Shown: piece by piece, positions 3,127-53,405 of the stretch
Layout of the letters: each line of letters begins with the position of its first letter
How positions within the stretch are numbered: position 1 is the first letter of the stretch
IMG/VR virus record: IMGVR_UViG_3300009175_000013
Coordinates: 10,638 to 74,637 of that record
Direction: 5' to 3' (one strand)
From: a virus
DNA length: 64,000 nt
Notes under the pieces: model-generated
Told to the model about the DNA's origin: nothing
Database searches by the model: none
What the model saw: only the letters and a program-made list of their open reading frames with translations
Position numbers and translations under genes: made by a program

Positions 3127-3859
3127 GATTCGCCTTTATATCATTAATCCATTTTATAACACTTAAATCATCAAACGTTGATCTAGCCCTATTAATGGCT
3201 TTCAAAACCAATCTAATATTAGTAACTAGGTATCCGATTTTATTATCAATTCGATCAATAGATAAGCTAAGACATGGGTGGGCATAGCATGCCATTTTAA
3301 CCCCAGCGAGGGCGCATTCGCCATTCTGAGATCTATATAATTCCACTACCTTATCAGTATTAATATCATTTTCGGCGAACTTGGCCTGGGCGTTTCGGAC
3401 ACAAGTTGAGATATAATCCCTACTAAACTTCTCTGGTTTAAATAAACTTGGATCTTTAATACATTCTACAAAATATATCACATCCGCATTGGTGTGTCGA
3501 TTCTTAGCTAGGTTAATGCCCCTACACACTAACTGGGTATTAAGTTTAGTGTGCCCAATAGAATTGTCAATGCGATCGATCGATAGAGACCAAAGTGAAA
3601 AATCGTGCGTGAGAGTTAGACCAGAAATCGCACACTTTTCATTGGTACTATATAACTTATTGATAAATCCCAGGTCTAAATCGCAGCCCCTACCCTTGGA
3701 TTTATCCTCCAGAATCGCCTGCCAAGCATGCCTGGTAATCCATGATCTCCACGTTCTTGTGTAATATAAGTGATTGTGTTTGGACTGCTCAATAGACCTG
3801 CCAGCCCTACACTTCTTGACATATTCTCTGTTGCGATGCAACCTCTCATCGTTTGTCAT
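3113..3859 (-). CDS. HNH-like endonuclease with a tandemly duplicated domain
   Basis: two copies of CA(I/L)xG...LSIDRIDNxIG(H/Y)...N..LV...IN; AT-rich. Confidence 0.75.
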   Translation of the reverse strand: MTNDERLHRNREYVKKCRAGRSIEQSKHNHLYYTRTWRSWITRHAWQAILEDKSKGRGCDLDLGFINKLYSTNEKCAISGLTLTHDFSLWSLSIDRIDNSIGHTKLNTQLVCRGINLAKNRHTNADVIYFVECIKDPSLFKPEKFSRDYISTCVRNAQAKFAENDINTDKVVELYRSQNGECALAGVKMACYAHPCLSLSIDRIDNKIGYLVTNIRLVLKAINRARSTFDDLSVIKWINDIKANHGQV

Positions 3860-3904
3860 AATACCTTTAATACATCGCGTCATTATAGTATTATGTGCAT
3901 ATAT

Positions 3905-3940
3905 AAAAAAGAACCCCGGTTTCTTAGGCCGGGGTTCTTT
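3905..3940 (-). terminator. intrinsic terminator after the major capsid gene
   Basis: aaagaaccccgg/ccggggttcttt stem followed by a T run on the minus strand. Confidence 0.85.
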
Positions 3941-3949
3941 ACTAAACTA

Positions 3950-5491
3950 TTACAGATTCGATACGGTGATGGTGGCATAGTAAAGTCCACCATCTTCTAT
4001 CAACTTCTTACCATACCGCGTCATGATGCCCTTGCTCGGCGTATAGGAGTTTGGATCCAATACGGTCGGGGTCGAGAGGAGGGGGATGTACGGAGCATAG
4101 AAGTATCCAGCATCCAGGACCGAATTGCCCTTATAACCCAAGAGGATCTTGCAGTTGGGGAACAGCGGGTCCTTGAAGAGCTGGAGTTTGCCCTGGATGG
4201 TGCCGGCGTTCATGATGCCGATATCCATGCCTTCGTCGACCATGGCGTCGGAGCCACGGAAGTCGTTGAGCTGCTCGAACTTGGAGCTGATGTCCGCGGA
4301 GGTGACCATCCAGTTGGCGGGGCCACGGAGGGTGGTCCGGTGGATGATGTTGGCAACTTCGAGGACTTTGTAGAGCAGAGCGATGTTGCGGTCGGTGAAG
4401 TTGACGGAGGCTCCGGCGGCGGTGGCGAAGTTGTGGGAGGCCCGAATTGCCGCACTGATAATCAGGTCGTTGATGATTTCACGGTCGATTTCGGCGACCA
4501 TTTCATCAGCCATCAAATCGGTGAGGGTGGATTCGGCGTCGATGTTGTGTACGGCCTTGAGGTCTTGGGCGGCTTCCAGCGACCAGGCGGTCTTGAGCTT
4601 GCGGGTAACGGCGGCGACGGAGTCGCTGTCGATGCTCAGGGTGAGTTCGGGCTGGAAGGGGTTGGCTTCGAGGTCGTATTCGTAGTTGACGCGGGCGAAT
4701 GCGCCGACTGGGAAGGTTCCAGCATCGAATTTGACTTTGAGTTCGCCGGTGGTGTTGCTGAAGCTGGAGTAGGAGGTATCAACGGTGATACCGGAGGTGA
4801 CATCGCAGCCTTCGCCGAGGACTACGACATCGACTGCGCCGTCGGAGTCGAAGGTGACTTGGACGCAGGGGACCATGTTTTCGCAGGTGGCGCTCTTCTG
4901 GGCGAGGTCGTAGACGTTGAGGACTACGGTGCCGGCGAGTACTGGGCGGTGTTGGAGGATGTGATCGACTTTGTTGGCGGCGAAGGTGGTGACGTCTTCG
5001 TCACGGACTTGCTGCGAGGAGTAGTAGGGGTCGAGTGCCCAGCCGTTTTGCTTGGCGAAGGTTTGGCTGGTGTTTTGACGCATGATCTGGGTTCCGGCGA
5101 CCGTCTGGCCCTTGGTGAGGGCGTAGCGGTAGCGGATGTAGAAGATCAGGCTGGCGGGCTGGCTCATTGGCTGGACGCCGACGAGGTTGTCGGAGATCAG
5201 GCGAGCGTAGCTCTTGCGGATGAGGGGGAGGGCGAACCGGGTGAAGTCGGCGACGTTGCCGGTGGTGGTGACGTCTTCGAACAGCACGGTGCGGTTTTTG
5301 GGGTCCCAGGCCTTGTGCTGGTTTTCAAGCAGGGTGGCCATGAGGCCGAGTTTGCCCTTCTTGATTTCGCGGCACTTCTGGAGGACTGGGCTCCAGCGGG
5401 CGACGTCCTGGTTTTTCTTGGATTCGGCCAGGACTGCGGCTTTGTGGGAGTCGCGGGTTTCAGTGATTGTGGTTTTGACGTGTTCTGCCAT
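3950..5491 (-). CDS. gp23: major capsid protein (T4 gp23-like)
   Basis: LVGVQPMSQPASLIFYIR, TRKLKTAWSLEAAQDLKAVHNIDAE, AEIDREII, GYFYAPYIPL, KGIMTRYG. Confidence 0.97.
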   Translation of the reverse strand: MAEHVKTTITETRDSHKAAVLAESKKNQDVARWSPVLQKCREIKKGKLGLMATLLENQHKAWDPKNRTVLFEDVTTTGNVADFTRFALPLIRKSYARLISDNLVGVQPMSQPASLIFYIRYRYALTKGQTVAGTQIMRQNTSQTFAKQNGWALDPYYSSQQVRDEDVTTFAANKVDHILQHRPVLAGTVVLNVYDLAQKSATCENMVPCVQVTFDSDGAVDVVVLGEGCDVTSGITVDTSYSSFSNTTGELKVKFDAGTFPVGAFARVNYEYDLEANPFQPELTLSIDSDSVAAVTRKLKTAWSLEAAQDLKAVHNIDAESTLTDLMADEMVAEIDREIINDLIISAAIRASHNFATAAGASVNFTDRNIALLYKVLEVANIIHRTTLRGPANWMVTSADISSKFEQLNDFRGSDAMVDEGMDIGIMNAGTIQGKLQLFKDPLFPNCKILLGYKGNSVLDAGYFYAPYIPLLSTPTVLDPNSYTPSKGIMTRYGKKLIEDGGLYYATITVSNL

Positions 5492-11151: not shown

Positions 11152-14049
11152 CTATTGGTCTTTCTGGACCAATATATTATAAATCTCTGTGGCAGCTTTC
11201 TTCCGCACTTCCTTAGAGATGCTGTGCTCAATGATGAGCTTCTGCTCAGCACCCTTACGAAGGCCATCAACTTCATGGAAACTAAGCACATGCTGGTATG
11301 CCGAGTTGGTCACGCCATTACGTTTTTCGTCAAGTTTCTCGATGAATTCCCGAATCATCTTGCCGCGGCGCATCTTCCTCTGCTCCGAAATCAGCCGTTT
11401 GTAGTCGTGGTCTAGTCTTTCGCCTAGGCCACCTAGTCCACCAGCTCCGGCACCCGCGCCTGCGCCTCCGGCACCTGCTCCAGCTCCAGCTCCGGCTCCA
11501 GCTCCTAGGCCAGCCCCAGCACCACCAGCTGGCGGTTTGCCGAGACCCTTATCCATCCCGCCCTCTTTCTTATCCTTATCCCCAGCAATCTTCGGCAACT
11601 TATCAGCACCACCAGGAGGCGGCTTGGGTGCTCCACCCAATCCCCCGCCGCCACCGCCCAGCCCACCCTCTTCATCCTGTAGATCACCAGCTTCCGACAT
11701 AATTGCAGATAGCTCATCGATCTCATCTGGGCTAAGATCCGAAAACCGCGTGACAATCCATTCCTTTGGGAACCATCCCAGTTCCTTCAGGTCACTCATC
11801 ACTGCAGTACGGCTCTGCCAGGTTTCCATACGGTATAGCTCATCGATAGCGCTGGAAGCACTCATCCCGATCTCAAACCCTTTGAGATCTTCAATGGTGA
11901 ATCCCTTCATGGCCAGATGGCAGATAGCAACTTTGGTGAGGCCCATTGCGACTTCGCGCTGAACCCATTGTACTGATTTGGCGAATTCGGCATCCGTGGA
12001 GGAAAGGGACTTGCCCTGCTCTTCACCCGCGCCCTCACCAATGCCCACTCGCTTAAAGGGGATCTTGGTTGGTGCAACCATCTTCTTTTTGAAGTATTCG
12101 ATGTCCTTGATTTGGTCAAGGTTCTCGGCCCCCTCGAGAGTGTCGATGCTCGGGGCAGTCCCATCGGGACGAACCGGCAGGAAGAAATCATCTTCCTGGA
12201 TGAGTGGGGAGAACCGCTCGTTGAACTGGCCAGTGCGGGGATCGTAGAATTTCTGCTGTTTGAACATCCGGGCCACGGCCTGCATGAATTCTGGGATGTC
12301 TTTGGCAGCGATATTGCCCACTGGGATCTTGAAGATTCTTTTCTCAGGAGCCCTAGTGATACGGTAGATGAGGGCCGCATCTTCCATGAGCCGGAGTTGT
12401 TTGAAGGCTTTGCGTCCACCTTCCATAATCGCCCGACCATATGGGTGATAGATGTTGGCGTAGTCGGTCAGGCGGAGGTGCATGACCTGCCATGGGTGCA
12501 TAAATTGGGGTTCTTCCATTACTTCATCTTGGTGGAAGAATCCTACTAGGTCACCGTGCTTGGTTTCAATGCGGGTGAAGTTGTACACGTTAACGAAACG
12601 AAGGGATGCCACTCCATCGCGATCACGCGTGGGGACGATCTCATATGGGGCGTCGCCATATTTGCACAGGTACCTGACCATGGGGCGGACGTAATTGTCG
12701 ATGAGAAGCTGGCTAAAGAACAACTCTTCGAGGGCGTGCTTGACGGCGTGGGTTTTGGCCTTGATTACGATGGTGTGCTTGCGTTCGGGATCTACTAAAC
12801 TGGCTTCGTCACTATTGTGGACAATAATCCATGACGACTCAGTACCGGCTGCAAAGCAATTATATCCATCAACTTCGATATCATATACCTCAGTAGCGGA
12901 TTCGCAGGGCGTAACCGAGATAACTTTGTGATTACCAACAGCGGCCATTCTAAAATCAACTAGATTAGTATTATGCCTTTCAAACAGCCTAAGAATAACT
13001 CGCTGAGCACATCCCAGATTGTGTGCTATTTTGCGCACGCTACCCAGATCGCCACCATTATTAATGTAATTTAATAAATCATCCCAGGTAACCACTGAAT
13101 ATTCGGCTGTCCTGCGGAAAGATTTACCACTTAGGTTCAATTGCATTCCGCGATTGCGGCAATGTGGAGCCATTTTGCATCTATATTCTGAGTTTTGCCA
13201 TTTCAATTTGGCCGCCTCAGAACACTTAATACGCTTTGATTCGCGGGCCTCACCAGTTAATTTACCAAGACCTCTGTGCAACTCGGCATGGTCTGCCCAC
13301 GTCATCAATTTGAAATTTTCTGGTGAATTATTATACTTATTTAAGTCACAATGGTGTATTACACCCTTGCGCTCACCAAACAATTTCTCCCACACCCATT
13401 GGTGGGTGGCCTGCCACCTCTGATCTTCTAATTGAATAAATTCATATTCACGATTTACCAACCCATCATGCAATTTTGATAGGGGCGGCTTTCTGGTTTT
13501 ATATAATGGAACGACTGATTCGCCAGCGCTTAACTTAGCCGCCTCGACCCAGCCATTTTTCTTAGTTAAAATTTTATGGTTAGGGGTGCATTTAATAGTC
13601 AATCCATCATCAAATAACACTTCAACCATTTTAGCATTGCGACCAGAAACATGGGGGTTCCTGGCTTTAGCTGGCACATACCGCCCATTTGTAACGTCAT
13701 AGGCATACACCCAAAATTCGGCATCTATCCCTTTGCTAGCTAATTCTCTAATAGTTGGGTGTGTTCCATCAAGCAGTGGGATTATGGTATCACCATGCAA
13801 ACAATATAGATCGAGGGCCAGGGACATTTCCCCGGTTTCATCCATTTGGTCGTAGTCTTTGTACCGCTCCAGCCGGTTGATTTGGAGGTTGGTCTGGTTC
13901 AGGAGCATCTGCTGCTGGTTGAAGTTCAGCAGTTCATTGCCTGCCATGATGCGTAGCAGGTCAGATTGGTCCTGGAATAGACGCTCTTGCTGATAGATAT
14001 TAGCTGAGCGTGCTAGGGATCTGATTCTATCAAATAAATGCCAGCTCAT
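11152..14049 (-). CDS. gp20: portal protein (T4 gp20-like) containing an intein
   Basis: QLRLMEDAALIYRITRAPEKRIFKIPVGN, EDDFFLP, IDTLEGAENLDQIKDIEYFKKK. Confidence 0.95.
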   Translation of the reverse strand: MSWHLFDRIRSLARSANIYQQERLFQDQSDLLRIMAGNELLNFNQQQMLLNQTNLQINRLERYKDYDQMDETGEMSLALDLYCLHGDTIIPLLDGTHPTIRELASKGIDAEFWVYAYDVTNGRYVPAKARNPHVSGRNAKMVEVLFDDGLTIKCTPNHKILTKKNGWVEAAKLSAGESVVPLYKTRKPPLSKLHDGLVNREYEFIQLEDQRWQATHQWVWEKLFGERKGVIHHCDLNKYNNSPENFKLMTWADHAELHRGLGKLTGEARESKRIKCSEAAKLKWQNSEYRCKMAPHCRNRGMQLNLSGKSFRRTAEYSVVTWDDLLNYINNGGDLGSVRKIAHNLGCAQRVILRLFERHNTNLVDFRMAAVGNHKVISVTPCESATEVYDIEVDGYNCFAAGTESSWIIVHNSDEASLVDPERKHTIVIKAKTHAVKHALEELFFSQLLIDNYVRPMVRYLCKYGDAPYEIVPTRDRDGVASLRFVNVYNFTRIETKHGDLVGFFHQDEVMEEPQFMHPWQVMHLRLTDYANIYHPYGRAIMEGGRKAFKQLRLMEDAALIYRITRAPEKRIFKIPVGNIAAKDIPEFMQAVARMFKQQKFYDPRTGQFNERFSPLIQEDDFFLPVRPDGTAPSIDTLEGAENLDQIKDIEYFKKKMVAPTKIPFKRVGIGEGAGEEQGKSLSSTDAEFAKSVQWVQREVAMGLTKVAICHLAMKGFTIEDLKGFEIGMSASSAIDELYRMETWQSRTAVMSDLKELGWFPKEWIVTRFSDLSPDEIDELSAIMSEAGDLQDEEGGLGGGGGGLGGAPKPPPGGADKLPKIAGDKDKKEGGMDKGLGKPPAGGAGAGLGAGAGAGAGAGAGGAGAGAGAGGLGGLGERLDHDYKRLISEQRKMRRGKMIREFIEKLDEKRNGVTNSAYQHVLSFHEVDGLRKGAEQKLIIEHSISKEVRKKAATEIYNILVQKDQ
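12814..13803 (-). mobile_element. intein (330 aa) with HNH endonuclease in the portal gene
   Basis: Y|CLHGDT...KCTPNHKI...VYDIEV...IIVHN|S; internal IHHCDLNKYNNSPENF..MTWADHAELH; AT-rich relative to the exteins. Confidence 0.93.
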
Positions 14050-42925: not shown

Positions 42926-45766
42926 TTAGGCTGACACTACACCACCAGCCACGAGGATCTCCTGCGCCCCGAAGCTAGCCCCGGTCCGCAGAATCACCAA
43001 GTTCAGGACGATGAATTCTGCGGAGCGGTTGGGCTTGATGAACACCGAAACCCAGAGTTCGTTCCGATCGATTCTCTCCGGAGTGTTGTTAGTCTCGTCG
43101 CAAACCACTTTGAAGGCAGTCAGGCCACGCCGCGCTGCCACATCACCCAGATATGGTTCGATCAGGTTCCGGATCTGCGCCCGCGTCGAGCCGTCATTGA
43201 ACTCAAACACGAAGTTACGCAACGTCGAGGACAAATTCTTCTTCAGGGAGATACACAGCATCCGGACGTTGACCCGGTCCAGAGCCGTGGATTGCCGCTG
43301 CAGCGTCCGCTGGCCCCATACCGTAATGCCCTGCTGGATGAAGTTCACGATGGCGTTGACCGCATTGCCGCTGCCGTACAGAGCGTCACGCTCACTCTGA
43401 GTGGGATTGTATTCCACATCCAAAGCCGAAAGCACGCTGCCACGGTTCAGGCCAGCGGGAGCATACCACTGTTCCGCCACCCGATCTGTACGGGCAAAGA
43501 CCGCCGCGATGTGGCCGCTTGGCGGAACCCAGATGGTCCCACCATTGTACTGATCGCTAATCTTGAGCCAGCTCCAGTACAGGGCCGCATAGCTGGTATT
43601 CAAGGCCGTTGCCAGATCGCTGGTTAACATCCCATTGTGCCAATCGATCACTTCCTGTGGCCGCAGACCAACTGGCGGATCGATCAGGTACAGGACGTCG
43701 CCACGGTTTTCGCAGAACTGAATGCCCTGAGCCAGCACGGGACCGCTCGAGAATCCGGGGGTAGCCAAGAGGTTGAAGTCGAACGCTTCTGGATTCTGCA
43801 GGGCGTAGATGCCAGTGGAGAGAGCCGGGTTACCGATGACCTTCTGGTCCAGGTAGATGCTGTCTTCGGTTTCCGTCGGGATCCCGTTTTCGCCGCCCAC
43901 AAAAGCCGTATTGGTGAATGGGCTTGGATTCCGTACATCAACCCCAAGGTAGGAAGGACGAGCTTCCCACTGGAAGTAAGTATTGCCAGTCACGCCGCCA
44001 ATTGGGCTGCCGGCATTGACCACATTGCCAATATACCGGGTGGCGGCTGGATCAAAGCTGACATCCTGGGTCACATCAACGGCCATGCCGTTGCCATCCT
44101 TCACCGTGACCTTGTACCGTCCCGCCACATCGCCCACGCCCTCGGTGAACACTTCCAGCGAGATGGTGTAGCCACTGGACCAAGTCCCAGCATATTTCGC
44201 CACGACCCAGCCCACAATGTTGTCATAGTAAGCGGAGTCGGTGACGCACTGAGTCCCACTGGGGGCATCGATACAGGACTGGGGAGTGGTGGGATCGCCC
44301 GAGTTACCTTCAGGGAGCCAGAGCCGTGCGTCGGTGAAGGTCCGGTAGATGGAGGTGTACGGCGGCAGGATGCCGATTTCGTTGGCAAACTGCATAGTCT
44401 CGAAGTGGCTGTAGCTGGCCAGAAGCTTCAGCTGATCGGTCATTCTGGCGTCGGAGGTCTGGACCACCACCAGCTTATCGCCGCCTGGGATGGTCAGAGC
44501 GAATGCGGTGAAATAGTCGGTCCCGCCGTAGTTGGAGTTCGCTTCAAGAGCCGCAGCCAGGGTGGTTGCATCCGTCCCCGAGACCGCAGGAACCACGAAG
44601 TTGAACTCAACCGTGTTGGCCGACCCAATGCAGTCGAGAACGACGCGGTTGTTCGAGCTGGAGAAGTTGTAGGGGCCAGCATTGGTGCCCAGAAGGTGGC
44701 TGCGGGGGATATCATAGGTGTATTGGGCCACGCCGACTTCAGCACAAAAGGCACAAGTCCCAGCCAGCTGAATCCAATCGCCGACCGTATCGGTTTGGAG
44801 AGCCACCACTTCCACGCCGTTGGCATCGAAAGAGGTAGTCGCAGCCAAAGTGGTTACGCCGAGCACGACGTTAATGGCATTGATCAAAGTCGTGTTGGAG
44901 GAGTAGGTGGCCGCAGGCACTACCACGCTGGTAACTGCCCCACCGTCGACTTGGTAGGTCAGGGTGCGGTTGTCGGGTTTGGAGGTGATCACCAAGGTGT
45001 CATTCACACCAACCTGGGTAGCATTGGTAATGGTCACAGTGAAGGAAACCCCGAGGCTTACGCTGTTGAGGGCCAGATTGATTTGGTTGCTGACAGCCCC
45101 AGTGGTGGTGAAAGTGCCAGAGGCGACTTCATCACCTGAGCTGTTAGTGACCACGTAGGTGGCTCCGTCCCACAGGTGGGTGCCGGGGTCGCCAGTAATG
45201 GTAAGGGTGAAGACATCGTCAAGGCAGCCGCTGTACAGAGTCGCGCCACCCACAAAGGAAACAGTAGTGGTGACTGCGCCGACTGAGGGATCGGCAACTT
45301 CGGCGTCATTCCAGGATCCGGCAGTGCTGAGGGCTGCGTGCAGAACAACGGGGGCCGGATTGCCACCAGTGCCATCGCCAACTGGGCGGAATTTGACACG
45401 GCCAAAATCCATGCCCTTGAAGACTGGGATGCGGCCCCAACCCTGCTTGCGTGTACCGGCAGTGTCGATAGCAATCGGCTCTAGGGTGCTTTTGATGCCG
45501 TTGTAGTACTCGACACCTACACGGAGTACATAGCAGGAGTTGCCTTCCTCAAGATACGCCAGGGTGGCATACCCTAGGTAGCTAGTCGGGAACGGATCCC
45601 CGAAGGTGTCAACGAACTGCGCAGCACTGGTGATCAGCGTGGGCACATTGAGAGGGCCTTTGCTGGCGGCACCAATGAAAGCTGGCCTGAGCGTCCCCAG
45701 GTTGCTGGGCAGAAGGCTGAGGTCAATCTCTCTGGTAAATACGCCTGGGCTTAGGAAGACTGCCAT
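42926..45766 (-). CDS. gp18: tail sheath protein (gp18-like)
   Basis: LSPGVFTREID, WVPPSG, WYAPAGLNRG, WGQRT, LDRVNVR, CDETNNTP. Confidence 0.97.
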   Translation of the reverse strand: MAVFLSPGVFTREIDLSLLPSNLGTLRPAFIGAASKGPLNVPTLITSAAQFVDTFGDPFPTSYLGYATLAYLEEGNSCYVLRVGVEYYNGIKSTLEPIAIDTAGTRKQGWGRIPVFKGMDFGRVKFRPVGDGTGGNPAPVVLHAALSTAGSWNDAEVADPSVGAVTTTVSFVGGATLYSGCLDDVFTLTITGDPGTHLWDGATYVVTNSSGDEVASGTFTTTGAVSNQINLALNSVSLGVSFTVTITNATQVGVNDTLVITSKPDNRTLTYQVDGGAVTSVVVPAATYSSNTTLINAINVVLGVTTLAATTSFDANGVEVVALQTDTVGDWIQLAGTCAFCAEVGVAQYTYDIPRSHLLGTNAGPYNFSSSNNRVVLDCIGSANTVEFNFVVPAVSGTDATTLAAALEANSNYGGTDYFTAFALTIPGGDKLVVVQTSDARMTDQLKLLASYSHFETMQFANEIGILPPYTSIYRTFTDARLWLPEGNSGDPTTPQSCIDAPSGTQCVTDSAYYDNIVGWVVAKYAGTWSSGYTISLEVFTEGVGDVAGRYKVTVKDGNGMAVDVTQDVSFDPAATRYIGNVVNAGSPIGGVTGNTYFQWEARPSYLGVDVRNPSPFTNTAFVGGENGIPTETEDSIYLDQKVIGNPALSTGIYALQNPEAFDFNLLATPGFSSGPVLAQGIQFCENRGDVLYLIDPPVGLRPQEVIDWHNGMLTSDLATALNTSYAALYWSWLKISDQYNGGTIWVPPSGHIAAVFARTDRVAEQWYAPAGLNRGSVLSALDVEYNPTQSERDALYGSGNAVNAIVNFIQQGITVWGQRTLQRQSTALDRVNVRMLCISLKKNLSSTLRNFVFEFNDGSTRAQIRNLIEPYLGDVAARRGLTAFKVVCDETNNTPERIDRNELWVSVFIKPNRSAEFIVLNLVILRTGASFGAQEILVAGGVVSA

Positions 45767-46076: not shown

Positions 46077-46898
46077 TTACACTCGTCTATTTAGCATTTC
46101 AGATTCATCAGCAACAACTTTACCCAGAATCACCGGCATAATCTTCGGCGGAATCGATAGCCAAGCCTCCGCCGTATACACCACCTCATACTTTACCTTG
46201 GCGTATTGCTCCGAGGTAGCTTCCTTCTCGCTGGAATCAGCCGAAGAGTCCATCTTCATCTGCACGCATCCCACCGAAATCCCGTCAGAAACCCGCAACT
46301 CGGCTAAAGGATTGAAACGCGTCAGCATCTGATATAGCACATACTCAGCGTCACGCTTGTGCTCGGCCCAGATGCTAATGGTGTAATTCACATTATAAGG
46401 AACCGGACGATAGAACGCTGCCGCCATGGTCCGCTGCCGATTCACAAACCTCTTATGCAGATTGCGATATGGCGGCGAAAACTTCTGCGGATTATAAGTG
46501 TGGCCAGTGCGGCTAATGGAGATCACCGGCAATTTTACCCGGCCATGCTTTAAATCTTCAGTCCAGACTTGCAAGCTGGTCCGCATGCCAGCTACCTTGG
46601 CACGAGCGAAGCGATATGAATCTTTTGACGGCACTCTGATGTCTGACCAATAAGCCTTCATCCCGGCGTCCAAATAGTGAAAGGCCGCGTCGATGGAGTC
46701 TTCCACATAGCCTGGCTCGACCCGGCTCTGCTCCCACTGATTAGGAACTCTACCGCTTTGGGCATCAGATAGCTGATACGCAGCTACCGGCACCATAGGG
46801 CTAATGGGATTGTTAATAGAGCCGCCTGGCACCTGCCCGGCCACAACGCCCCTGGGCACGTTTTCAAAGGTGAAAGAACTACCAAATTGATGAATCAC
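46077..46898 (-). CDS. gp15: tail sheath stabiliser/terminator (gp15-like)
   Basis: VKLPVISISR, PVPYNVNYTISIW, QMLTRFNP. Confidence 0.85.
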   Translation of the reverse strand: MIHQFGSSFTFENVPRGVVAGQVPGGSINNPISPMVPVAAYQLSDAQSGRVPNQWEQSRVEPGYVEDSIDAAFHYLDAGMKAYWSDIRVPSKDSYRFARAKVAGMRTSLQVWTEDLKHGRVKLPVISISRTGHTYNPQKFSPPYRNLHKRFVNRQRTMAAAFYRPVPYNVNYTISIWAEHKRDAEYVLYQMLTRFNPLAELRVSDGISVGCVQMKMDSSADSSEKEATSEQYAKVKYEVVYTAEAWLSIPPKIMPVILGKVVADESEMLNRRV

Positions 46899-47173: not shown

Positions 47174-47742
47174 TATTTATGGTCAATATCGATGGTTTCG
47201 TCGTTGGTGATATTCTCAACTTGGCACGTCCAGTACAGCCAGTTATACTTGAAGTTGCCAGCGTCGGCGGCATTCAGAACACGATAGCGATCCGGTTTGA
47301 TCCCACTCCCACCATAGGGTAGCTCAATGATATCGCCGATGCGGATCATTCTCTGCCCAAACTCCTTGAAGACCTGCTCCTTACTAAATGAAACCTTGGT
47401 TTGGTTGGGCGCGTCCACGCCCCAGGGGGTAAGCTGAGCCTCAATCGGCTGAGGGGCGAACCAGGCCTTAAGATGGTGCCCAGACCCGTAAGTGGGATCG
47501 GGATCTTCCTCCCACACATCATCATAATGCTCGCTGCTCGTGCGTGGATAGACTGTAACATCCCCGCCAGCAATATTCACGATTTCTTTGGCGATAGATC
47601 CAGCCAGAATATGATCCGCACTGCCTGCGTCATGTAGCTGGATTAGAGGGTGCTCCTGCTCCATATCCGACCTAGCCTGTAAGCGGCCCTGGCTCGGAGC
47701 TACCCTTGTTGCTTCAGAATCTTGCGAGAAGCGATGGATCAT
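47173..47742 (-). CDS. neck/head-closure protein (gp14-like)
   Basis: DDVWEEDPD, LTPWGVD, IGDIIELP; position next to gp15. Confidence 0.7.
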   Translation of the reverse strand: MIHRFSQDSEATRVAPSQGRLQARSDMEQEHPLIQLHDAGSADHILAGSIAKEIVNIAGGDVTVYPRTSSEHYDDVWEEDPDPTYGSGHHLKAWFAPQPIEAQLTPWGVDAPNQTKVSFSKEQVFKEFGQRMIRIGDIIELPYGGSGIKPDRYRVLNAADAGNFKYNWLYWTCQVENITNDETIDIDHK

Positions 47743-48158
47743 TTACTTCTCCAGGCGCGGTCTTCACTCTGCACTTGGCAAGGATCAGCCGCGAACGCAT
47801 CGCAATTAGCATTGATCAAAGCCTCCTCATCCTCGGTGGCACCACGCGCCAAACCCCGGATAATTGAATAGTAATCCGTGAGAGGAGCGCAAGGGCAAGT
47901 TTGGTCCACCGCCGGAAGGACCAGTAGCCTTCTATTTCCTGTGAATCCCATGTTGGGGAGAAGCTCAATATATGAGCCTGGGATAGCCTCAAGGATATCG
48001 TTCACATCAGCGATTGATCCCTTGCATAAGCCTTGTAGGCGGATTTGGTTATCCATGGTCACGGAGGTAATGGTGGTCGAAGGCTCACACCCTGGAACTA
48101 AAATGCTACCACCATTCGGGCTTTGAATGACGTTGAACTTAATGCTCTTAGTGATCAT
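47739..48158 (-). CDS. hypothetical protein
   Basis: 139-aa ORF within the operon. Confidence 0.65.
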   Translation of the reverse strand: MITKSIKFNVIQSPNGGSILVPGCEPSTTITSVTMDNQIRLQGLCKGSIADVNDILEAIPGSYIELLPNMGFTGNRRLLVLPAVDQTCPCAPLTDYYSIIRGLARGATEDEEALINANCDAFAADPCQVQSEDRAWRSK

Positions 48159-48159
48159 A

Positions 48160-48921
48160 TTAGTACCGGTAAATCATGCTGGCATAGGGGTCATCTGACA
48201 ACAGTAGGGCTTTCTCGTAAACCTCTTTCTGCAGCTCATACCCCTTAGTCTTCATGGCATCACCATCCAGTGTCAGAGAGCCACCATCTGGACTTGGGAT
48301 GCCACCGAACTTCCCACGGGCGTTGCCGAGCATGATCATGGTCTCGGCTAGCATAAGATCATACACTAGCAGTTTGTTGGCCGGCGTACGCCATGTTGAG
48401 ATCGCTGGGATATAGATCACGAAGACTGGAAACGATCCCTTGGGCGTGGGATATAGCCGGATCTTATTGTCGCCCAAACACTCCCAGTGACCCTCATTAC
48501 CCAAAATGCGTTGGCTGAACCGGCGATATTGTTGCAGTAGTGTGTAGTCAGTAAGGATGGTCTGGATGCCAGTGATGTTTCCAATGTTTGCTGCGATAGA
48601 CTTGGGGATACCGAGTCTTCGCCGATTTTTGTCCATTAAATCAGAATGCGGTGGAACCGAACCACAAGATCGCAGGCACGCTTCTTCCCATGATTTCCCA
48701 TGGTTAGCATCACCAGAAATAAAGTGGGCCATTTCGTCAGCCACAACATCGCCGGCGGCAGCAGTACAAAATTTATATTGTGATAAGAATATCTCCCCCG
48801 TGTTTAAGTCAGTAAACGCTCCCACATTTGCAATTGGAGCGAGCCTTATTTTTAGATTTCGGTATAAATTTGCATTTGTAGTAACATCCTGCTCTCTGGG
48901 AATAGGCATAGTGGTGTTCAT
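48160..48921 (-). CDS. SprT-like domain fused to the C-terminal half of neck protein gp13
   Basis: DEMAH...HGKSW in residues 1-111; then KIRLYPTP and LGNARGKFGGIPSPDGGSLTLDGD, typical of the gp13 C-half; GAGGT SD. Confidence 0.8.
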   Translation of the reverse strand: MNTTMPIPREQDVTTNANLYRNLKIRLAPIANVGAFTDLNTGEIFLSQYKFCTAAAGDVVADEMAHFISGDANHGKSWEEACLRSCGSVPPHSDLMDKNRRRLGIPKSIAANIGNITGIQTILTDYTLLQQYRRFSQRILGNEGHWECLGDNKIRLYPTPKGSFPVFVIYIPAISTWRTPANKLLVYDLMLAETMIMLGNARGKFGGIPSPDGGSLTLDGDAMKTKGYELQKEVYEKALLLSDDPYASMIYRY

Positions 48922-49786
48922 GCGATACCTCGCTGAGTTCTTCTTTACTTTTGAACCATAATGTATAAGTTGTCTCTGGCTTAAGAGCTACCGGATTAAC
49001 AAACTCAATCATGTTGGCATTAAACCCACCCAAGAATAATTCGTACCCAGCTTCACGCTCTTGTGCTGTCACTCCACGAAATTTTGCCCCAGCGTTTTTT
49101 GCAGCTTGAGATGCGTATAGATATTTATCTAGTGGTATCATGTTTTCGGCTGGTTTGACTTCAATCCAACAATCTCCATTCGGTGATTGCACCGAAAAGT
49201 CCACAAAATACGTTCTTTGTTTGCCAGTTAACCTGTCAGCATATGGCACTCTAATTAGCTCATAGTCCCAATTCTCAACAGATGTGTCGCTATCGAGTAG
49301 CAAAGCATAAGATAGCTCGTGAAGCGACTTGAAAAGATGAGGTCCATATCCATATCGTGACTTAGCTTTGTTGATTTTCTTGATGGTTTCTGGATTACAC
49401 CCTGGGTGCCTATAACCAGTCTTCAACAAATACCTAAGCTGCATAGCCGCCGCCGCATGCTTGGGAGGCTTCTTTAGACCATATTTTCGAATTTTAGACC
49501 GGACAGTGTTAAAATGCAACCCCAACGATTCGGCTATGGTCTTTGCGTCTTTGTTCGCAATCAAGTATTCATTATATAAATATTTAGGGGTTAGAACTGA
49601 TGTGTCTTTTCTGGTTTTAATAAACTCGGCATAGGCTATAGAGCTGTGGTTATGAAGCGAGGTATCAACACCCAACTCCTTTAACTTACGTTTAACTGTT
49701 ATTGGTGCACAACCGAATTCGCTTGCGCATTGCTTTAAAGTATGAGATGTGAAATACGCAACAAGTCGTGAGCAATCAATATTCAT
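48809..49786 (-). CDS. PD-(D/E)XK (TnsA-N/gp4-like) endonuclease with N-terminal HTH repeats
   Basis: FKSLHE...LD...WDYE..RVPY...RTYFVDF...IEVKP; AT-rich. Confidence 0.82.
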   Translation of the reverse strand: MNIDCSRLVAYFTSHTLKQCASEFGCAPITVKRKLKELGVDTSLHNHSSIAYAEFIKTRKDTSVLTPKYLYNEYLIANKDAKTIAESLGLHFNTVRSKIRKYGLKKPPKHAAAAMQLRYLLKTGYRHPGCNPETIKKINKAKSRYGYGPHLFKSLHELSYALLLDSDTSVENWDYELIRVPYADRLTGKQRTYFVDFSVQSPNGDCWIEVKPAENMIPLDKYLYASQAAKNAGAKFRGVTAQEREAGYELFLGGFNANMIEFVNPVALKPETTYTLWFKSKEELSEVSHEHHYAYSQRAGCYYKCKFIPKSKNKARSNCKCGSVY

Positions 49787-49822
49787 ATACTATGTTTGAT
49801 TGCCCATTGTGTTATTAATATA

Positions 49823-50536
49823 TTAATGCACCAGTATCGGCTGGCCACCATGGCATCCGTAAAAACAATGTGCACCAACCACATATATTGTTGTGGTCGG
49901 CCCAAACCCAGCGGCCTTAACGTTTAAAATCTTGTTCTTGCAACCAACACCAATCGCCTCCCCAGTCACCGCTTTGGCTTCAACCCAATCATTGATCATG
50001 TCGTCGATACCATTGATTTTGATTGGGTGGTTCGGAGTGCACTTTAGCAGGCCACCCTCGTACACAACCTCAACCAGTTCTTGGTCTTGTTCGTGACGTT
50101 CTAAGATTAATTTGCGAGGTCCATATGGCGTTTTGGCTTTGAATTCGGGCTTCCACTCAGCCAAGTCCACAAGCACCCCATCGTCACGCAAAACCATCAT
50201 CCCATCAGCAAAACAGAACAAGAAGCTCTCGGCCCCGAACACGTCGCCAATATTGGTTGAAACTGGATCCCAAGCCACTTCTTGGACCCAGTAGGCATCA
50301 TTGGGGAGTGGGTAGGTACTCACCAACGGGGTGCTGTAGAAAACGGCGAAACGCTGCTCTTTGGAGAGATAGTGGGCGATGAAGTTGCCCGTGGTCTTGA
50401 GCACGGTCTCCCACTGGTCTTCGCTGACTTCTACTTCTACGGAGGATAGACCTAATTTGGATAGGACATACTTTTTGATTGGTTCGCTGTCAACCTTCAA
50501 AACGTACGGCAGTTCAGACGGTCCCAGAATAGCCAT
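49823..50536 (-). CDS. N-terminal half of neck protein gp13 fused to a Hint domain
   Basis: KKYVLSKLG...VEVEVSEDQ (gp13 N-terminus); GGAGGT SD; Hint domain from residue 108. Confidence 0.85.
   Translation of the reverse strand: MAILGPSELPYVLKVDSEPIKKYVLSKLGLSSVEVEVSEDQWETVLKTTGNFIAHYLSKEQRFAVFYSTPLVSTYPLPNDAYWVQEVAWDPVSTNIGDVFGAESFLFCFADGMMVLRDDGVLVDLAEWKPEFKAKTPYGPRKLILERHEQDQELVEVVYEGGLLKCTPNHPIKINGIDDMINDWVEAKAVTGEAIGVGCKNKILNVKAAGFGPTTTIYVVGAHCFYGCHGGQPILVH
49826..50215 (-). mobile_element. intein-like Hint domain (130 aa) lacking the terminal Asn
   Basis: F|CFADG (block A), KCTPNHPI (block B), TTIYVVGAHCFY (block F), ILVH-stop (block G). Confidence 0.85.
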
Positions 50537-50590
50537 AGTTACCTCCGCTTTATGTTTGCAACGCGAAACTCAGCGGCTAGGCTGACCGGA

Positions 50591-51136
50591 TTATAAGGGG
50601 AAGTGCATCCCGCCGTGCCCGTAGATGACCCCGCCGACATCCATCTTGATCGTCTGCACGTCCACAGAAGTAATGGCCGCTTCAAGCGATGTCTTCAGGG
50701 CTTTGCACGCAGCAGCGTTAGCAGCACTCGGCATGGTGTCAGTACTATACCCCTTTGGCCCAGATGCGGGACCCTTCCAAACTTTCCCCACACTAATTAA
50801 TGTCTTTTCGCCGTAGGGCACCGCGGCGCTGTCGTCATCGTAGAATCCCACTACGGTCACAGTGTCAGGAAATTCGCCCATTTGCGGCTTAACCGAGACA
50901 GCATTAACGGTGCTCGCCAGAGAATCAGCATCTACTGCCAACCCCCAATGTACTGCCCCACCAGGCGCTGCCATATTGATGCCAGGGCCAGTGCCAGACT
51001 CATTTTCGAGTGTGGTATAGAGATCGCCCCAGATGAGGTGGGCAATCCGCTCGCGGCTGCGCACGATCTCAAACCGTTTCCCGCTACCCCGTTCCGGTAC
51101 GATCTTGAAATAAGCCACGAATGGGATTCTATTCAT
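50591..51136 (-). CDS. hypothetical (probably structural) protein
   Basis: GGAG SD and upstream CAAATATA motif. Confidence 0.7.
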   Translation of the reverse strand: MNRIPFVAYFKIVPERGSGKRFEIVRSRERIAHLIWGDLYTTLENESGTGPGINMAAPGGAVHWGLAVDADSLASTVNAVSVKPQMGEFPDTVTVVGFYDDDSAAVPYGEKTLISVGKVWKGPASGPKGYSTDTMPSAANAAACKALKTSLEAAITSVDVQTIKMDVGGVIYGHGGMHFPL

Positions 51137-51499: not shown

Positions 51500-51928
51500 T
51501 TAGGCGTTTTCGACTGGCGGAACGATTGGGGCTGCAGCGGAGGCTTCGGCGAAGAGGTCGCCGCCCACGCTGGCCGCCTGTTCCTGGACGAACTTGTCGG
51601 CACCAATCTGGAAGGTCTCGACCACGCCGACCAGAGTCGGGGCGTTGAGGCCAACCATCGCCTTCAAATCCTTCTGCGCCTGGAGGCCAACGGTGACCGG
51701 CAAGCCACGGGTAGCTCCCGCGCTGGCATGGCCCATGAACGGGCTGAAATCGGTCACAGTGGTAGTCCGGCCATTGTACTGGGTCCGGAATTCCGACCCT
51801 GGGACAACCAGGATCAGCTTACGCAGATGTCCGGTGAGGTTCTTGATCGAGTCGCCGCGGAGGTACTCACGCTGCGAACGAACGGTGCGGAAAATGTGAA
51901 TTGCTGTGTTTAGGGGTTGGTCTGCCAT
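51500..51928 (-). CDS. hypothetical (probably structural) protein
   Basis: AAGGAG SD and CAAAAGTA motif; codon bias resembles the capsid gene. Confidence 0.75.
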   Translation of the reverse strand: MADQPLNTAIHIFRTVRSQREYLRGDSIKNLTGHLRKLILVVPGSEFRTQYNGRTTTVTDFSPFMGHASAGATRGLPVTVGLQAQKDLKAMVGLNAPTLVGVVETFQIGADKFVQEQAASVGGDLFAEASAAAPIVPPVENA

Positions 51929-52034
51929 GATCTTGCTCCTTTACTCAGGCATGTCCTTTACTCAGGAAACACTCCATAAATACTTTTGCCCGAAACCCGT
52001 ACTCTTGCAGTATTTAACCCAGCACGGAGGACCT

Positions 52035-53405
52035 ATGCACGACACATACCAGTCACCCCTAGTCACCCGCACCGCATCTACAGAAATGTCCCACATCTGG
52101 AGCGACAATAACAAATTCAAATTATGGCGTGGACTATGGTACGAGCTAGCCGCCGCTCAAGCCGCCCTCGGGATTCCCATTACCCCAGCTCAATTGGCAG
52201 AGCTCGCAAAGGCCATCAATATCCCCATTAACCACGCCAAGGCTGCAGAGTACGAAGCCAAAACCAACCACGATGTCATGGCCCACATTAAACTGCTCGG
52301 AGACGACGCCCCCTCTGCGGCTGGCATTATCCATTTGGGTTCGACCAGCCAATTCGTAGTCGACAACGCCGACTCGATCAGAATCAGATCATCCATCCAA
52401 CTTATATTATCTAAACTGCGCAGCCTAGTCATATCAGTAGGCACCTTCGCCCAAGAACACCGCAGCGTCGCCACTTTGGCCTTGACCCATTTCCAGCCAG
52501 CCACGCCGACCACAGTCGGACGCAGAGCCGCATCGTGGTCATATGGTCTATACCTAGTTTACACTGAACTGCTCGCCAAATTCCAAAACTTGCGAGCACT
52601 CGGAGCTAAAGGCGCGACCGGGACACAAGCCTCCTTTCTTGAACTATTCAGCGGGGATAAGGAAAAGGTTGATGAACTCGACCGGCGTGTCTGCCGGGCG
52701 ATCGGTTTCGATGAAATCTACATGCTCAGTGGCCAAACCTATCCTAGAGTAGATGATAGCGTTCTTACCTGCCTGATCGCAAATTTGGCCGCCGAATGCC
52801 AGAAAATCACCACCGACATTCGGCTCCTCAGTGGTAAGGGAGAGATGGCCGAGTCCTTTTCTAAGGATCAGGTGGGCTCGTCCGCAATGCCCTATAAGAA
52901 GAACCCGCTCACGTGTGAACGTGTCTGCGGCCTATCCAAATTCATCATCGGCCTAGCAACTTCCTCTCTCTTGGTTACAAGCGAGCAATGGCTTGAACGC
53001 ACCCTCGATGACTCCAGTGCCAGGAGATTAATCCTTCCAGAAGCCTTCCTCGCAATCGACGGCATCCTCGAGTCTATGAATAAGATCTTCAAAGGTCTAG
53101 TCATCAACAAACGCGTAATTCAAGCACACCTGATGGATGAAATCGGATTCCTGGTCACTGAGAAAGTGCTAATGATCGCCTGCAAACACGGAGCTGACCG
53201 CCAGAAAGTACATGAGGCCATCAAGCAATGCGCCCTAAGCTGCCAAGGCGACACCTTCCTCCGGGAATTGCAAAAATTGCCAGAATTGGCCAGCATCGAT
53301 ATCGCCAAAGAATGCGCCGCCAGCAGTCTAATCGGCCTAGCCGAGGAGCAGACCATAAGATATTACTCATTGGTTATTACTCAATTGGAAGGGATCAAGA
53401 TTTAA
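52035..53405 (+). CDS. purB: adenylosuccinate lyase
   Basis: HDVMAH, IIHLGSTS, THFQPA, signature GSSAMPYKKNP; GGAGG SD. Confidence 0.95.
   Translation: MHDTYQSPLVTRTASTEMSHIWSDNNKFKLWRGLWYELAAAQAALGIPITPAQLAELAKAINIPINHAKAAEYEAKTNHDVMAHIKLLGDDAPSAAGIIHLGSTSQFVVDNADSIRIRSSIQLILSKLRSLVISVGTFAQEHRSVATLALTHFQPATPTTVGRRAASWSYGLYLVYTELLAKFQNLRALGAKGATGTQASFLELFSGDKEKVDELDRRVCRAIGFDEIYMLSGQTYPRVDDSVLTCLIANLAAECQKITTDIRLLSGKGEMAESFSKDQVGSSAMPYKKNPLTCERVCGLSKFIIGLATSSLLVTSEQWLERTLDDSSARRLILPEAFLAIDGILESMNKIFKGLVINKRVIQAHLMDEIGFLVTEKVLMIACKHGADRQKVHEAIKQCALSCQGDTFLRELQKLPELASIDIAKECAASSLIGLAEEQTIRYYSLVITQLEGIKI

Follow-up and report, generated by a model that had tools for sequence, protein, structure and literature searches.

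A fractured phage neck gene with a complete Hint domain on one half and a zincin leader on the other

Layout of the interrupted neck gene

We analysed an interrupted structural gene of a giant lake phage, in the IMG/VR viral contig IMGVR_UViG_3300009175_000013, which is 74.6 kb long and rated about 20% complete, implying a genome of about 350 kb. The whole stretch studied, referred to as the window, comprises 64,000 nucleotides of this contig. Three consecutive open reading frames (ORFs), all on the minus strand, fill positions 48160-50536. They encode the N-terminal half of a gp13-family neck protein (the N-half), a free-standing endonuclease, and the C-terminal half of the neck protein (the C-half), so that a single gene is fractured into two same-strand halves with an endonuclease gene between them. 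Each half carries an additional domain at its broken end: a Hint domain follows the native part of the N-half (the N-extein), and a zincin leader precedes the native part of the C-half (the C-extein). We refer to these two domains and the endonuclease as the cassette, and the coordinates are given in Table 1. An earlier note on this DNA had described 107 residues of gp13-like N-terminus running into a 130-residue Hint domain, and its coordinates and motifs hold (C1, TxxH, and an end at ILVH followed by TAA). The note had also described about 111 SprT-like residues with their own Shine-Dalgarno sequence, joined to a 142-residue C-half starting from NIGNITG at 48588, and this description agrees with the reading of the ORF and with the fold matches.

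The two halves together account for one complete neck protein. Intact homologs of 249 residues align across the break as ...GAESFLF|NIGNISGIQ..., in exact agreement with the junction AESFLF-NIGNITG and the total of about 249 residues that had been predicted. The N-half supplies residues 1-107 of the intact protein and the C-half residues 108-249, with none lost and none doubled. The stretch around the break is the best-conserved motif of the neck family, and all forms compared, whether split or intact, have Asn at the first position of the C-extein. These alignments place the cassette between codons F107 and N108 of a gp13-family neck gene.

The N-extein is 49-77% identical to its counterparts at more than 70 loci (tblastn), and tblastn matches of the C-half include genes of RaK2/K64-1-type jumbo phages that bear the annotation 'neck protein' or 'head-tail adaptor Ad2'. 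A precomputed match to PF26809 (Phage_T4_gp13) exists for the window's own C-half product, P0001, and the same family is recorded on relatives, including the N-halves P0223 and P0226. Where T4 gp13 structures are matched directly, the scores are weak (profile E value 0.93; Foldseek E value 0.29 to 9lu6, for the C-half). Downstream of the neck gene and on the same strand lie genes for a gp15-like sheath stabiliser (46077-46898) and the sheath (42926-45766), and a portal gene is present elsewhere in the window. The PF26809 matches and this place in a neck and sheath module identify the host, as judged from sequence, as a fractured gp13-family neck gene.

Base composition changes across the locus, with the GC fraction dropping to 0.37-0.44 over the endonuclease gene compared with about 0.50-0.55 in the flanks, which is the pattern expected of an acquired insert. 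A promoter and terminator scan of 47900-50800 gave counts no higher than chance, and the T4 late-promoter motif TATAAATA has zero coding-strand matches in the same region. An adenylosuccinate lyase-like ORF (51906-53405, plus strand) is transcribed divergently from the neck module.

Table 1. Coordinates of the fractured neck gene and its cassette in the window.
Feature	Position	Strand	Description
Shine-Dalgarno sequence GGAGG of the N-half gene	50542-50546	minus	5 nucleotides 5' of the ATG at 50536; read from sequence
N-half ORF	49823-50536	minus	237 residues: N-extein (1-107) and Hint domain (108-237)
N-extein	50216-50536	minus	gp13-family neck protein residues 1-107, ending ...GAESFLF; end-to-end alignment with intact 249-residue homologs
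Hint domain	49826-50215	minus	complete, 130 residues; no terminal Asn, no C-extein; Cys1 codon TGT at 50213-50215
Stop codon TAA	49823-49825	minus	immediately past the terminal His of the Hint domain
Endonuclease gene	48809-49786	minus	free-standing, homing-type, 325 residues; helix-turn-helix repeats and TnsA-like PD-(D/E)xK domain
Shine-Dalgarno sequence GAGG of the C-half gene	48928-48931	minus	6 nucleotides 5' of the ATG at 48921, within the endonuclease ORF; read from sequence
C-half ORF	48160-48921	minus	253 residues: zincin leader (111) and C-extein (142)
Zincin leader	48589-48921	minus	111 residues, minigluzincin/SprT-like; D62-E63-M-A-H66, H74, D38
C-extein	48163-48588	minus	142 residues, NIGNITGIQ... 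to ...MIYRY; intact residues 108-249, starting at C-half residue 112

The Hint domain, zincin leader and endonuclease

The Hint domain starts with CFADG, carries CTPNHP (TxxH) as its block B and ends with GGQPILVH. Its fold is predicted confidently by AlphaFold2, with a predicted local distance difference test score (pLDDT) of 87-96 over N-half residues 111-237. Foldseek returned matches of this model (probability 1.00, E values from 7e-7 to 1e-4) to mini-inteins and bacterial intein-like (BIL) domains, over their full length, and to Hedgehog (1at0). The top match is Tetrahymena BIL2 (6y75, E value 7e-7); template modelling scores are 0.81 for the gp41-1 intein (on the target) and 0.75 for the Clostridium thermocellum BIL domain 2lwy, and DnaB and DnaE inteins are also among the matches. 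For BIL2, the C. thermocellum BIL domain and the gp41-1, DnaB and DnaE inteins, the E values lie between 7e-7 and 1e-5. The same BIL domain, 2lwy, ranks first in a sequence-profile search (E value 6e-4). Full-length superposition of the model on mini-inteins and BIL domains indicates that the predicted Hint fold is whole, and is not half of a split intein.

We compared 17 N-halves, with identities down to 37%. Residue 1 of the Hint domain is Cys (C108 in the window), or Ser at the loci L011 and L013. In block B, T167 is invariant and H170 nearly so, and these two residues and the Cys or Ser at position 1 are kept between Hint lineages that share just 21-55% identity. The block F region has no invariant acidic residue. 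Of the 19 N-halves whose ends were examined, 17 have the stop codon next to the codon of the terminal His; L003 stops at the same position after a Ser, and L016 continues for 25 residues. The stop codon itself varies between loci (TAA, TAG or TGA), and the DNA downstream of it is unrelated. The alignment also contains a T-P-x-G motif (T136, P137, G139; window 50113-50131, minus strand), about 30 residues past Cys1, which is invariant in all 17 sequences although Hint identity falls to 21%. To our knowledge this motif is not among the classical intein blocks, and it could be a docking or acceptor-positioning site.

Canonical splicing is excluded by the sequence because the Hint domain does not end in Asn and because the C-extein opens with Asn, not Cys, Ser or Thr. 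Both absences had been pointed out in the earlier note and both stand, since the ORF ends at His and the +1 residue is Asn in all forms. One metagenomic relative, P0129, is a zincin-plus-C-half protein that also contains a canonical mini-intein (CLAEDT...TANH...HNYVVDGAVVGN|S), located five residues past the cassette junction at NIGNI|SG. Judged from these insertion points, canonical inteins in the neck gene use a nearby Ser, and the Hint-zincin cassette occupies the nucleophile-free F|N position. A standard intein is encoded elsewhere in the window (11152-14049, minus strand), and the same phage thus hosts both an intein and the Hint-zincin cassette.

Loss of the Hint domain would be genetically simple. 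Were codon 108 changed by one base (TGT to TGA), the trimmed N-half would be produced with no need of a Hint domain, and divergence among the cassettes is large enough for this mutation to have occurred repeatedly, yet a search of 5.8 billion clusters for an N-half consisting of the N-extein only gave just three fragments of intact genes. On these grounds the Hint domain appears to be needed.

The zincin leader ends in ...RRRLGIPKSIAA, which abuts the first C-extein residue exactly. Residues 62-78 of the C-half contain the putative active-site motif, DEMAH (62-66) followed by H74-G-K-S-W. The predicted model has a pLDDT of 73-90 over residues 21-100 and comprises a sheet of three strands and an active-site helix with further helices after it, with the junction segment (residues 109-113 of the C-half ORF) predicted as a short strand. 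The top Foldseek matches are proabylysin (4jiu), selecase (4qhi), projannalysin (4jix) and SPRTN (6mdw), at E values of only 0.014-0.15, and a profile search finds projannalysin at an E value of 1.7e-3. The leader in the window has no Pfam match; its homolog P0100 passes the Pfam SprT-like model with 35.3 bits against a cut-off of 25.6.

E63, H66 and H74 are invariant across the zincin homologs aligned. Of the best 120 protein clusters, the 83 that are full-length zincin-plus-C-half proteins all carry the zinc motif, as HExxH in 59 and as DExxH in 24, including the window. No leaderless C-half, that is, an ORF consisting of the C-extein only, occurs among these 120 clusters. A zincin-only profile searched against 1.84 billion representatives gave 101 matches and no second host gene: the close matches all lie on gp13 C-halves, and the remainder are generic small SprT-like proteins. 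Three proteins, P0127, P0128 and P0131, are short zincin proteins of 97-109 residues that stop 12-17 residues past the junction; P0127 and P0128 end in ...PNIGNISGIQNIY, whereas P0131 extends a few residues beyond that point. These ends may reflect a second interruption just downstream, or contig ends.

The earlier note's PD-(D/E)XK endonuclease between the halves is recognised by Pfam as PF08722 (Tn7_TnsA-like_N), with 38.6 bits against a cut-off of 26.5 and an E value of 1.7e-9. Residues 1-110 give helix-turn-helix matches, and the 3' end of the gene overlaps the C-half gene by 113 nucleotides. The catalytic residues E157, D196 and E209-V-K211 are invariant in six homologs at 34-56% identity. 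At three loci (L071, L072 and L073: 5582-6232) a free-standing homolog of this endonuclease (25% identity) lies right behind an intact gp13 gene, and this arrangement may represent the intron-less, free-standing state of the cassette endonuclease family beside its target.

Distribution, mobility and integrity of the cassette

The earlier note had proposed a search for recurrence of the architecture, and the four-part split layout was found in 8 further distinct IMG/VR loci, alongside about 65 loci with an intact gene. Among the best 120 protein clusters, at least 83 join a zincin to the C-half (83 as called, and 4 more of the same kind with a late start call), and 33 are intact. The full order of N-extein-Hint, endonuclease and zincin-C-extein is present in L003/L004, L005/L006, L009, L010 and L012. 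The endonuclease is on the opposite strand in L011 and L013, and a different ORF of 649 residues lies between the halves in L016. The cassette of L009 contains two extra ORFs without a Pfam match (3240-4973; 338 residues on the same strand and 251 residues on the opposite strand), owing to which the gap between its halves is 2.7 kb. In L014 an ORF for a C92 permuted papain-like amidase (1091-1678; Pfam E value 1.3e-7) replaces the usual endonuclease, directly upstream of the zincin-plus-C-half gene and overlapping its start. For L014 and L015 no N-half was found in the 2.8 kb upstream, where the contig ends.

We inferred a maximum likelihood tree from 53 extein sequences. The split state is scattered over this tree, with at least six changes (gains or losses) forced by well-supported branches: L009 is nested among almost identical intact alleles, and L003 is sister to the intact L007. 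Cassettes and hosts are also incongruent. The exteins of L010 and L016 are 91% identical, compared with 21% for their Hint domains and 32% for their zincins, and L012 is a chimera in which a Hint domain of the L009/L010 type (48% identity) and a same-strand endonuclease are combined with a zincin and exteins of the L011/L013 type. These mismatches indicate that cassettes recombine with each other. The extein tree and the incongruence between cassette and exteins also suggest mobility for the cassette with its homing-type endonuclease. The patchy extein tree, the incongruence and the kept endonuclease residues together lead us to conclude that the cassettes form an old element family that has diversified, is still mobile and keeps to a single target site.

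We also considered whether the interruption is removed or bypassed at the RNA or translation level, by a group I or II intron, frameshifting or bypass, or is an artefact or a decaying copy. Misassembly and decay had both been raised in the earlier note. The region recurs, with the same junctions and free of joints or indels, in Logan contigs from three studies and four runs. One contig extends from 47500 as far as 50950, and separate ones cross the extein/Hint junction (run X4) or the zincin/extein junction (run X6). The N-half protein is on record from 11 contigs. The note had also reported no second gp13 copy in the window, and none is present in the 74.6-kb contig, although this contig represents about 20% of the genome and leaves room for a second copy in the same phage. 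A relative with a complete genome argues against decay: the locus L003, whose exteins are 78% identical to those of the window, lies in a genome of 341,434 bp with direct terminal repeats, rated 100% complete, and this genome contains only the two gp13 halves and no intact gp13. At the RNA level, an Rfam cmscan with permissive filters over 47500-51000 found no RNA family at E values up to 1, and no group I or II intron. A programmed +1 frameshift that would restore His-Asn was rejected, since the stop codon and the downstream sequence differ between loci and offer no conserved frameshift context. No RNA runs are listed among the public runs that match the locus. The Hint and zincin domains are, furthermore, conserved as proteins over those 83 or more clusters. 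RNA splicing, frameshifting, misassembly and decay are therefore unsupported, and we regard explanations of this kind as very improbable.

Known relatives and the proposed rebuilding of the neck protein

The cassette most closely resembles the fractured genes with split inteins described by Dassa et al. (2009; PMC2677866). In both cases a conserved phage gene lies in two same-strand ORFs with a free-standing endonuclease of the PD-(D/E)xK superfamily between them, element-derived domains occupy both new ends, and the arrangement is patchy among relatives. The fractured genes of Dassa et al. differ in that their Hint domain is split into IntN and IntC and that a terminal Asn and a +1 Cys, Ser or Thr are required, whereas the window has a whole Hint domain ending in His on the N-half, an unrelated zincin on the C-half, and Asn at +1. 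Their endonuclease is Vsr-like, and that of the window is TnsA-like. NrdA of Aeromonas phage Aeh1, encoded in pieces after insertion of mobE, is also alike (Crona et al. 2010, PMC3045599): an endonuclease splits an essential phage gene, and termini brought by the element on both sides are required to regain function, but these termini are short, non-catalytic tails that are retained, unlike the two folded catalytic domains found exactly at native residues in the window. The arrangement of Hint and stop codon, endonuclease, and zincin with extein is not described in the literature searched, coverage of which was incomplete; works without it include Dassa et al. (2009; PMC2677866) and a 2025 survey of actinobacteriophage inteins.

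Each of the two domains also has relatives of its own. A canonical class 1 intein shares the N-terminal Cys or Ser and the block B Thr-x-x-His with the Hint domain of the window, but not the terminal Asn (or Gln or Asp) and the +1 Cys, Ser or Thr. BIL domains, including BIL2 of BUBL (2lwy, 6y75, 6tmm; PMC8616854), provide the best structural and profile matches and are Hint domains outside canonical splicing. BIL2 resembles the proposed system in handing its N-terminal flank to an amine, but it retains its terminal Asn, works in cis within one polypeptide and forms an isopeptide bond with Lys (PMC8616854), whereas in the system proposed here a protease would unmask the backbone alpha-amine of a second protein, which would serve as the acceptor. 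The Hedgehog autoprocessing domain likewise lacks C-terminal splicing chemistry and has its thioester resolved by an external nucleophile; in that case the nucleophile is cholesterol, recruited through an extra sterol-recognition region, and there is no protein acceptor. By these comparisons the Hint domain of the window is modelled as a complete Hint-superfamily fold of the BIL/Hedgehog type with the predicted acyl-shift residues present. The predicted zincin resembles minigluzincins and SprT/Wss1/SPRTN proteins in its size of about 90-110 residues, in its modelled topology and, in most of its family, in an HExxH motif with a downstream His, but differs in being an N-terminal leader on a structural protein and in that a third of its family, including the window, has DExxH. 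Archaeal minigluzincin zymogens, the subjects of the 4jiu and 4jix papers, reportedly keep their C-terminal tail in their own active-site cleft.

The analysis shows how the locus is built, that its catalytic residues are conserved and its boundaries exact, that the cassette is mobile, and that the complete relative has no other gp13 copy. From these findings we infer that the cassette carries its own two-part protein-repair module. The Hint domain of the N-half would perform an N-S acyl shift at F107-C108, for which the Cys or Ser at position 1 and the block B Thr and His are kept, and with neither a terminal Asn nor a +1 nucleophile the N-half would be held as a Phe107 (thio)ester. The zincin of the C-half would cut itself off at ...IAA|NIGN and bare the alpha-amine of Asn108. 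The acyl shift and the self-cleavage are both probable, and most likely both domains excise themselves and leave native ends. The two extein halves would then dock in the native gp13 fold, where the juxtaposed amine could attack the (thio)ester, releasing the Hint domain and forming a native Phe-Asn peptide bond; the zincin might also position or catalyse this attack. Covalent joining of this kind would be protein trans-splicing without a nucleophilic side chain, at an F|N junction that a canonical intein cannot use. Ligation of this sort had been proposed in the earlier note; the idea is coherent as chemistry and, as deduced from the sequence, a tentative reading.

We lean slightly towards ligation because the Hint domain looks indispensable and because each domain gains a clear chemical role, carboxyl activation for the Hint domain and amine unmasking for the zincin, where mere trimming would make them baggage. 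The start of the Hint domain at residue 108 and the end of the zincin at its residue 111 match the native break exactly, the zincin fold matches self-inhibited minigluzincin zymogens and SPRTN, and the split gene is the sole gp13 copy in the complete 341-kb genome. Folding-assisted aminolysis of thioester fragments without Cys was reportedly achieved by Beligere and Dawson (1999). The lean also rests on the documented attack of an amine on a Hint thioester in Tetrahymena BIL2, which forms an isopeptide bond (PMC8616854), and on the expectation that docked groups would lie within bonding distance.

Nearly as likely is an outcome, named in the earlier note as its alternative, in which the same two domains only trim the halves. 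The Hint domain would leave by N-terminal cleavage, its (thio)ester being resolved by water or a cellular thiol, the zincin would leave by autoproteolysis, and the scarless fragments would come together in the neck ring, with no covalent bond, as a gp13 that is nicked yet works. Until it is removed, the Hint domain may also be of use as a tag for folding or holding, or in docking. Every step of this route is precedented, by the N-terminal cleavage of BIL and other Hint domains and by the autoprocessing of minigluzincin/SprT-type zincins, whereas we know of no precedent for backbone ligation through attack of an alpha-amine on a Hint thioester. Several further observations weigh against ligation. 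L012 pairs the Hint domain and endonuclease of one lineage with the zincin of another, as would fit domains that act independently, and a search for Hint-zincin charge complementarity of the kind seen in split inteins found no consistent pattern, so that nothing indicates mutual recognition of the two domains. The Ser at position 1 in L011 and L013 gives an oxyester, which is less reactive toward amines. The window belongs to the DExxH clade, making the first zinc ligand of its zincin non-canonical, and the presumed zincin cleavage site is placed solely by the start of homology to the intact gene. The split Aeh1 NrdA, the only endonuclease-split phage enzyme known to have been studied experimentally, functions through its element-derived tails with no covalent joining (PMC3045599), and a fractured SbcD-like gene has short inserted tails and no intein (Dassa et al., PMC2677866). 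Trimming without ligation would, however, leave the Hint domain as a pure burden removable by one nonsense mutation, and neither a Hint-less N-half nor a leaderless C-half was found in the searches described above. Moreover, if the Hint domain were still attached when the halves dock, a thioester would lie beside an amine and aminolysis would be hard to avoid.

It is improbable that one or both accessory domains are instead retained or otherwise employed. Such roles might include a zincin that works as a virion or assembly protease on other targets, a Hint domain that offers nothing but a docking surface, or removal of the Hint domain in trans by the zincin. The DExxH motif of the window clade and the invariant T-P-x-G motif of the Hint domain would suit such roles. 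They sit poorly with the conservation of the Hint nucleophile, block B and the zincin zinc site, with the placement of both domains exactly at the native break, and with the closest zincin relatives occurring solely on gp13 C-halves. Given how neck rings pack, appendages of 130 and 111 residues would probably find no room at this ring protein's most conserved core motif, which also counts against retained domains.

Mobile endonucleases survive in essential genes by means of self-splicing introns, inteins or, rarely, sticky tails on the fragments. The locus represents a fourth, widespread design, in which a complete Hint domain without Asn and a predicted self-cleaving zincin flank a site free of Cys, Ser and Thr. 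Should the halves simply be trimmed and docked, the locus would show selfish elements making a repair kit out of two unrelated domains that process themselves. Should they instead be ligated, the cassette would use a new protein-splicing chemistry and provide mobile elements with a third repair route after RNA and intein splicing; such a scarless module, independent of the junction sequence, would be a candidate tool for traceless protein ligation at, in principle, any junction. This recurring layout, closed to normal protein splicing, may offer a new route from two genes back to a single protein.

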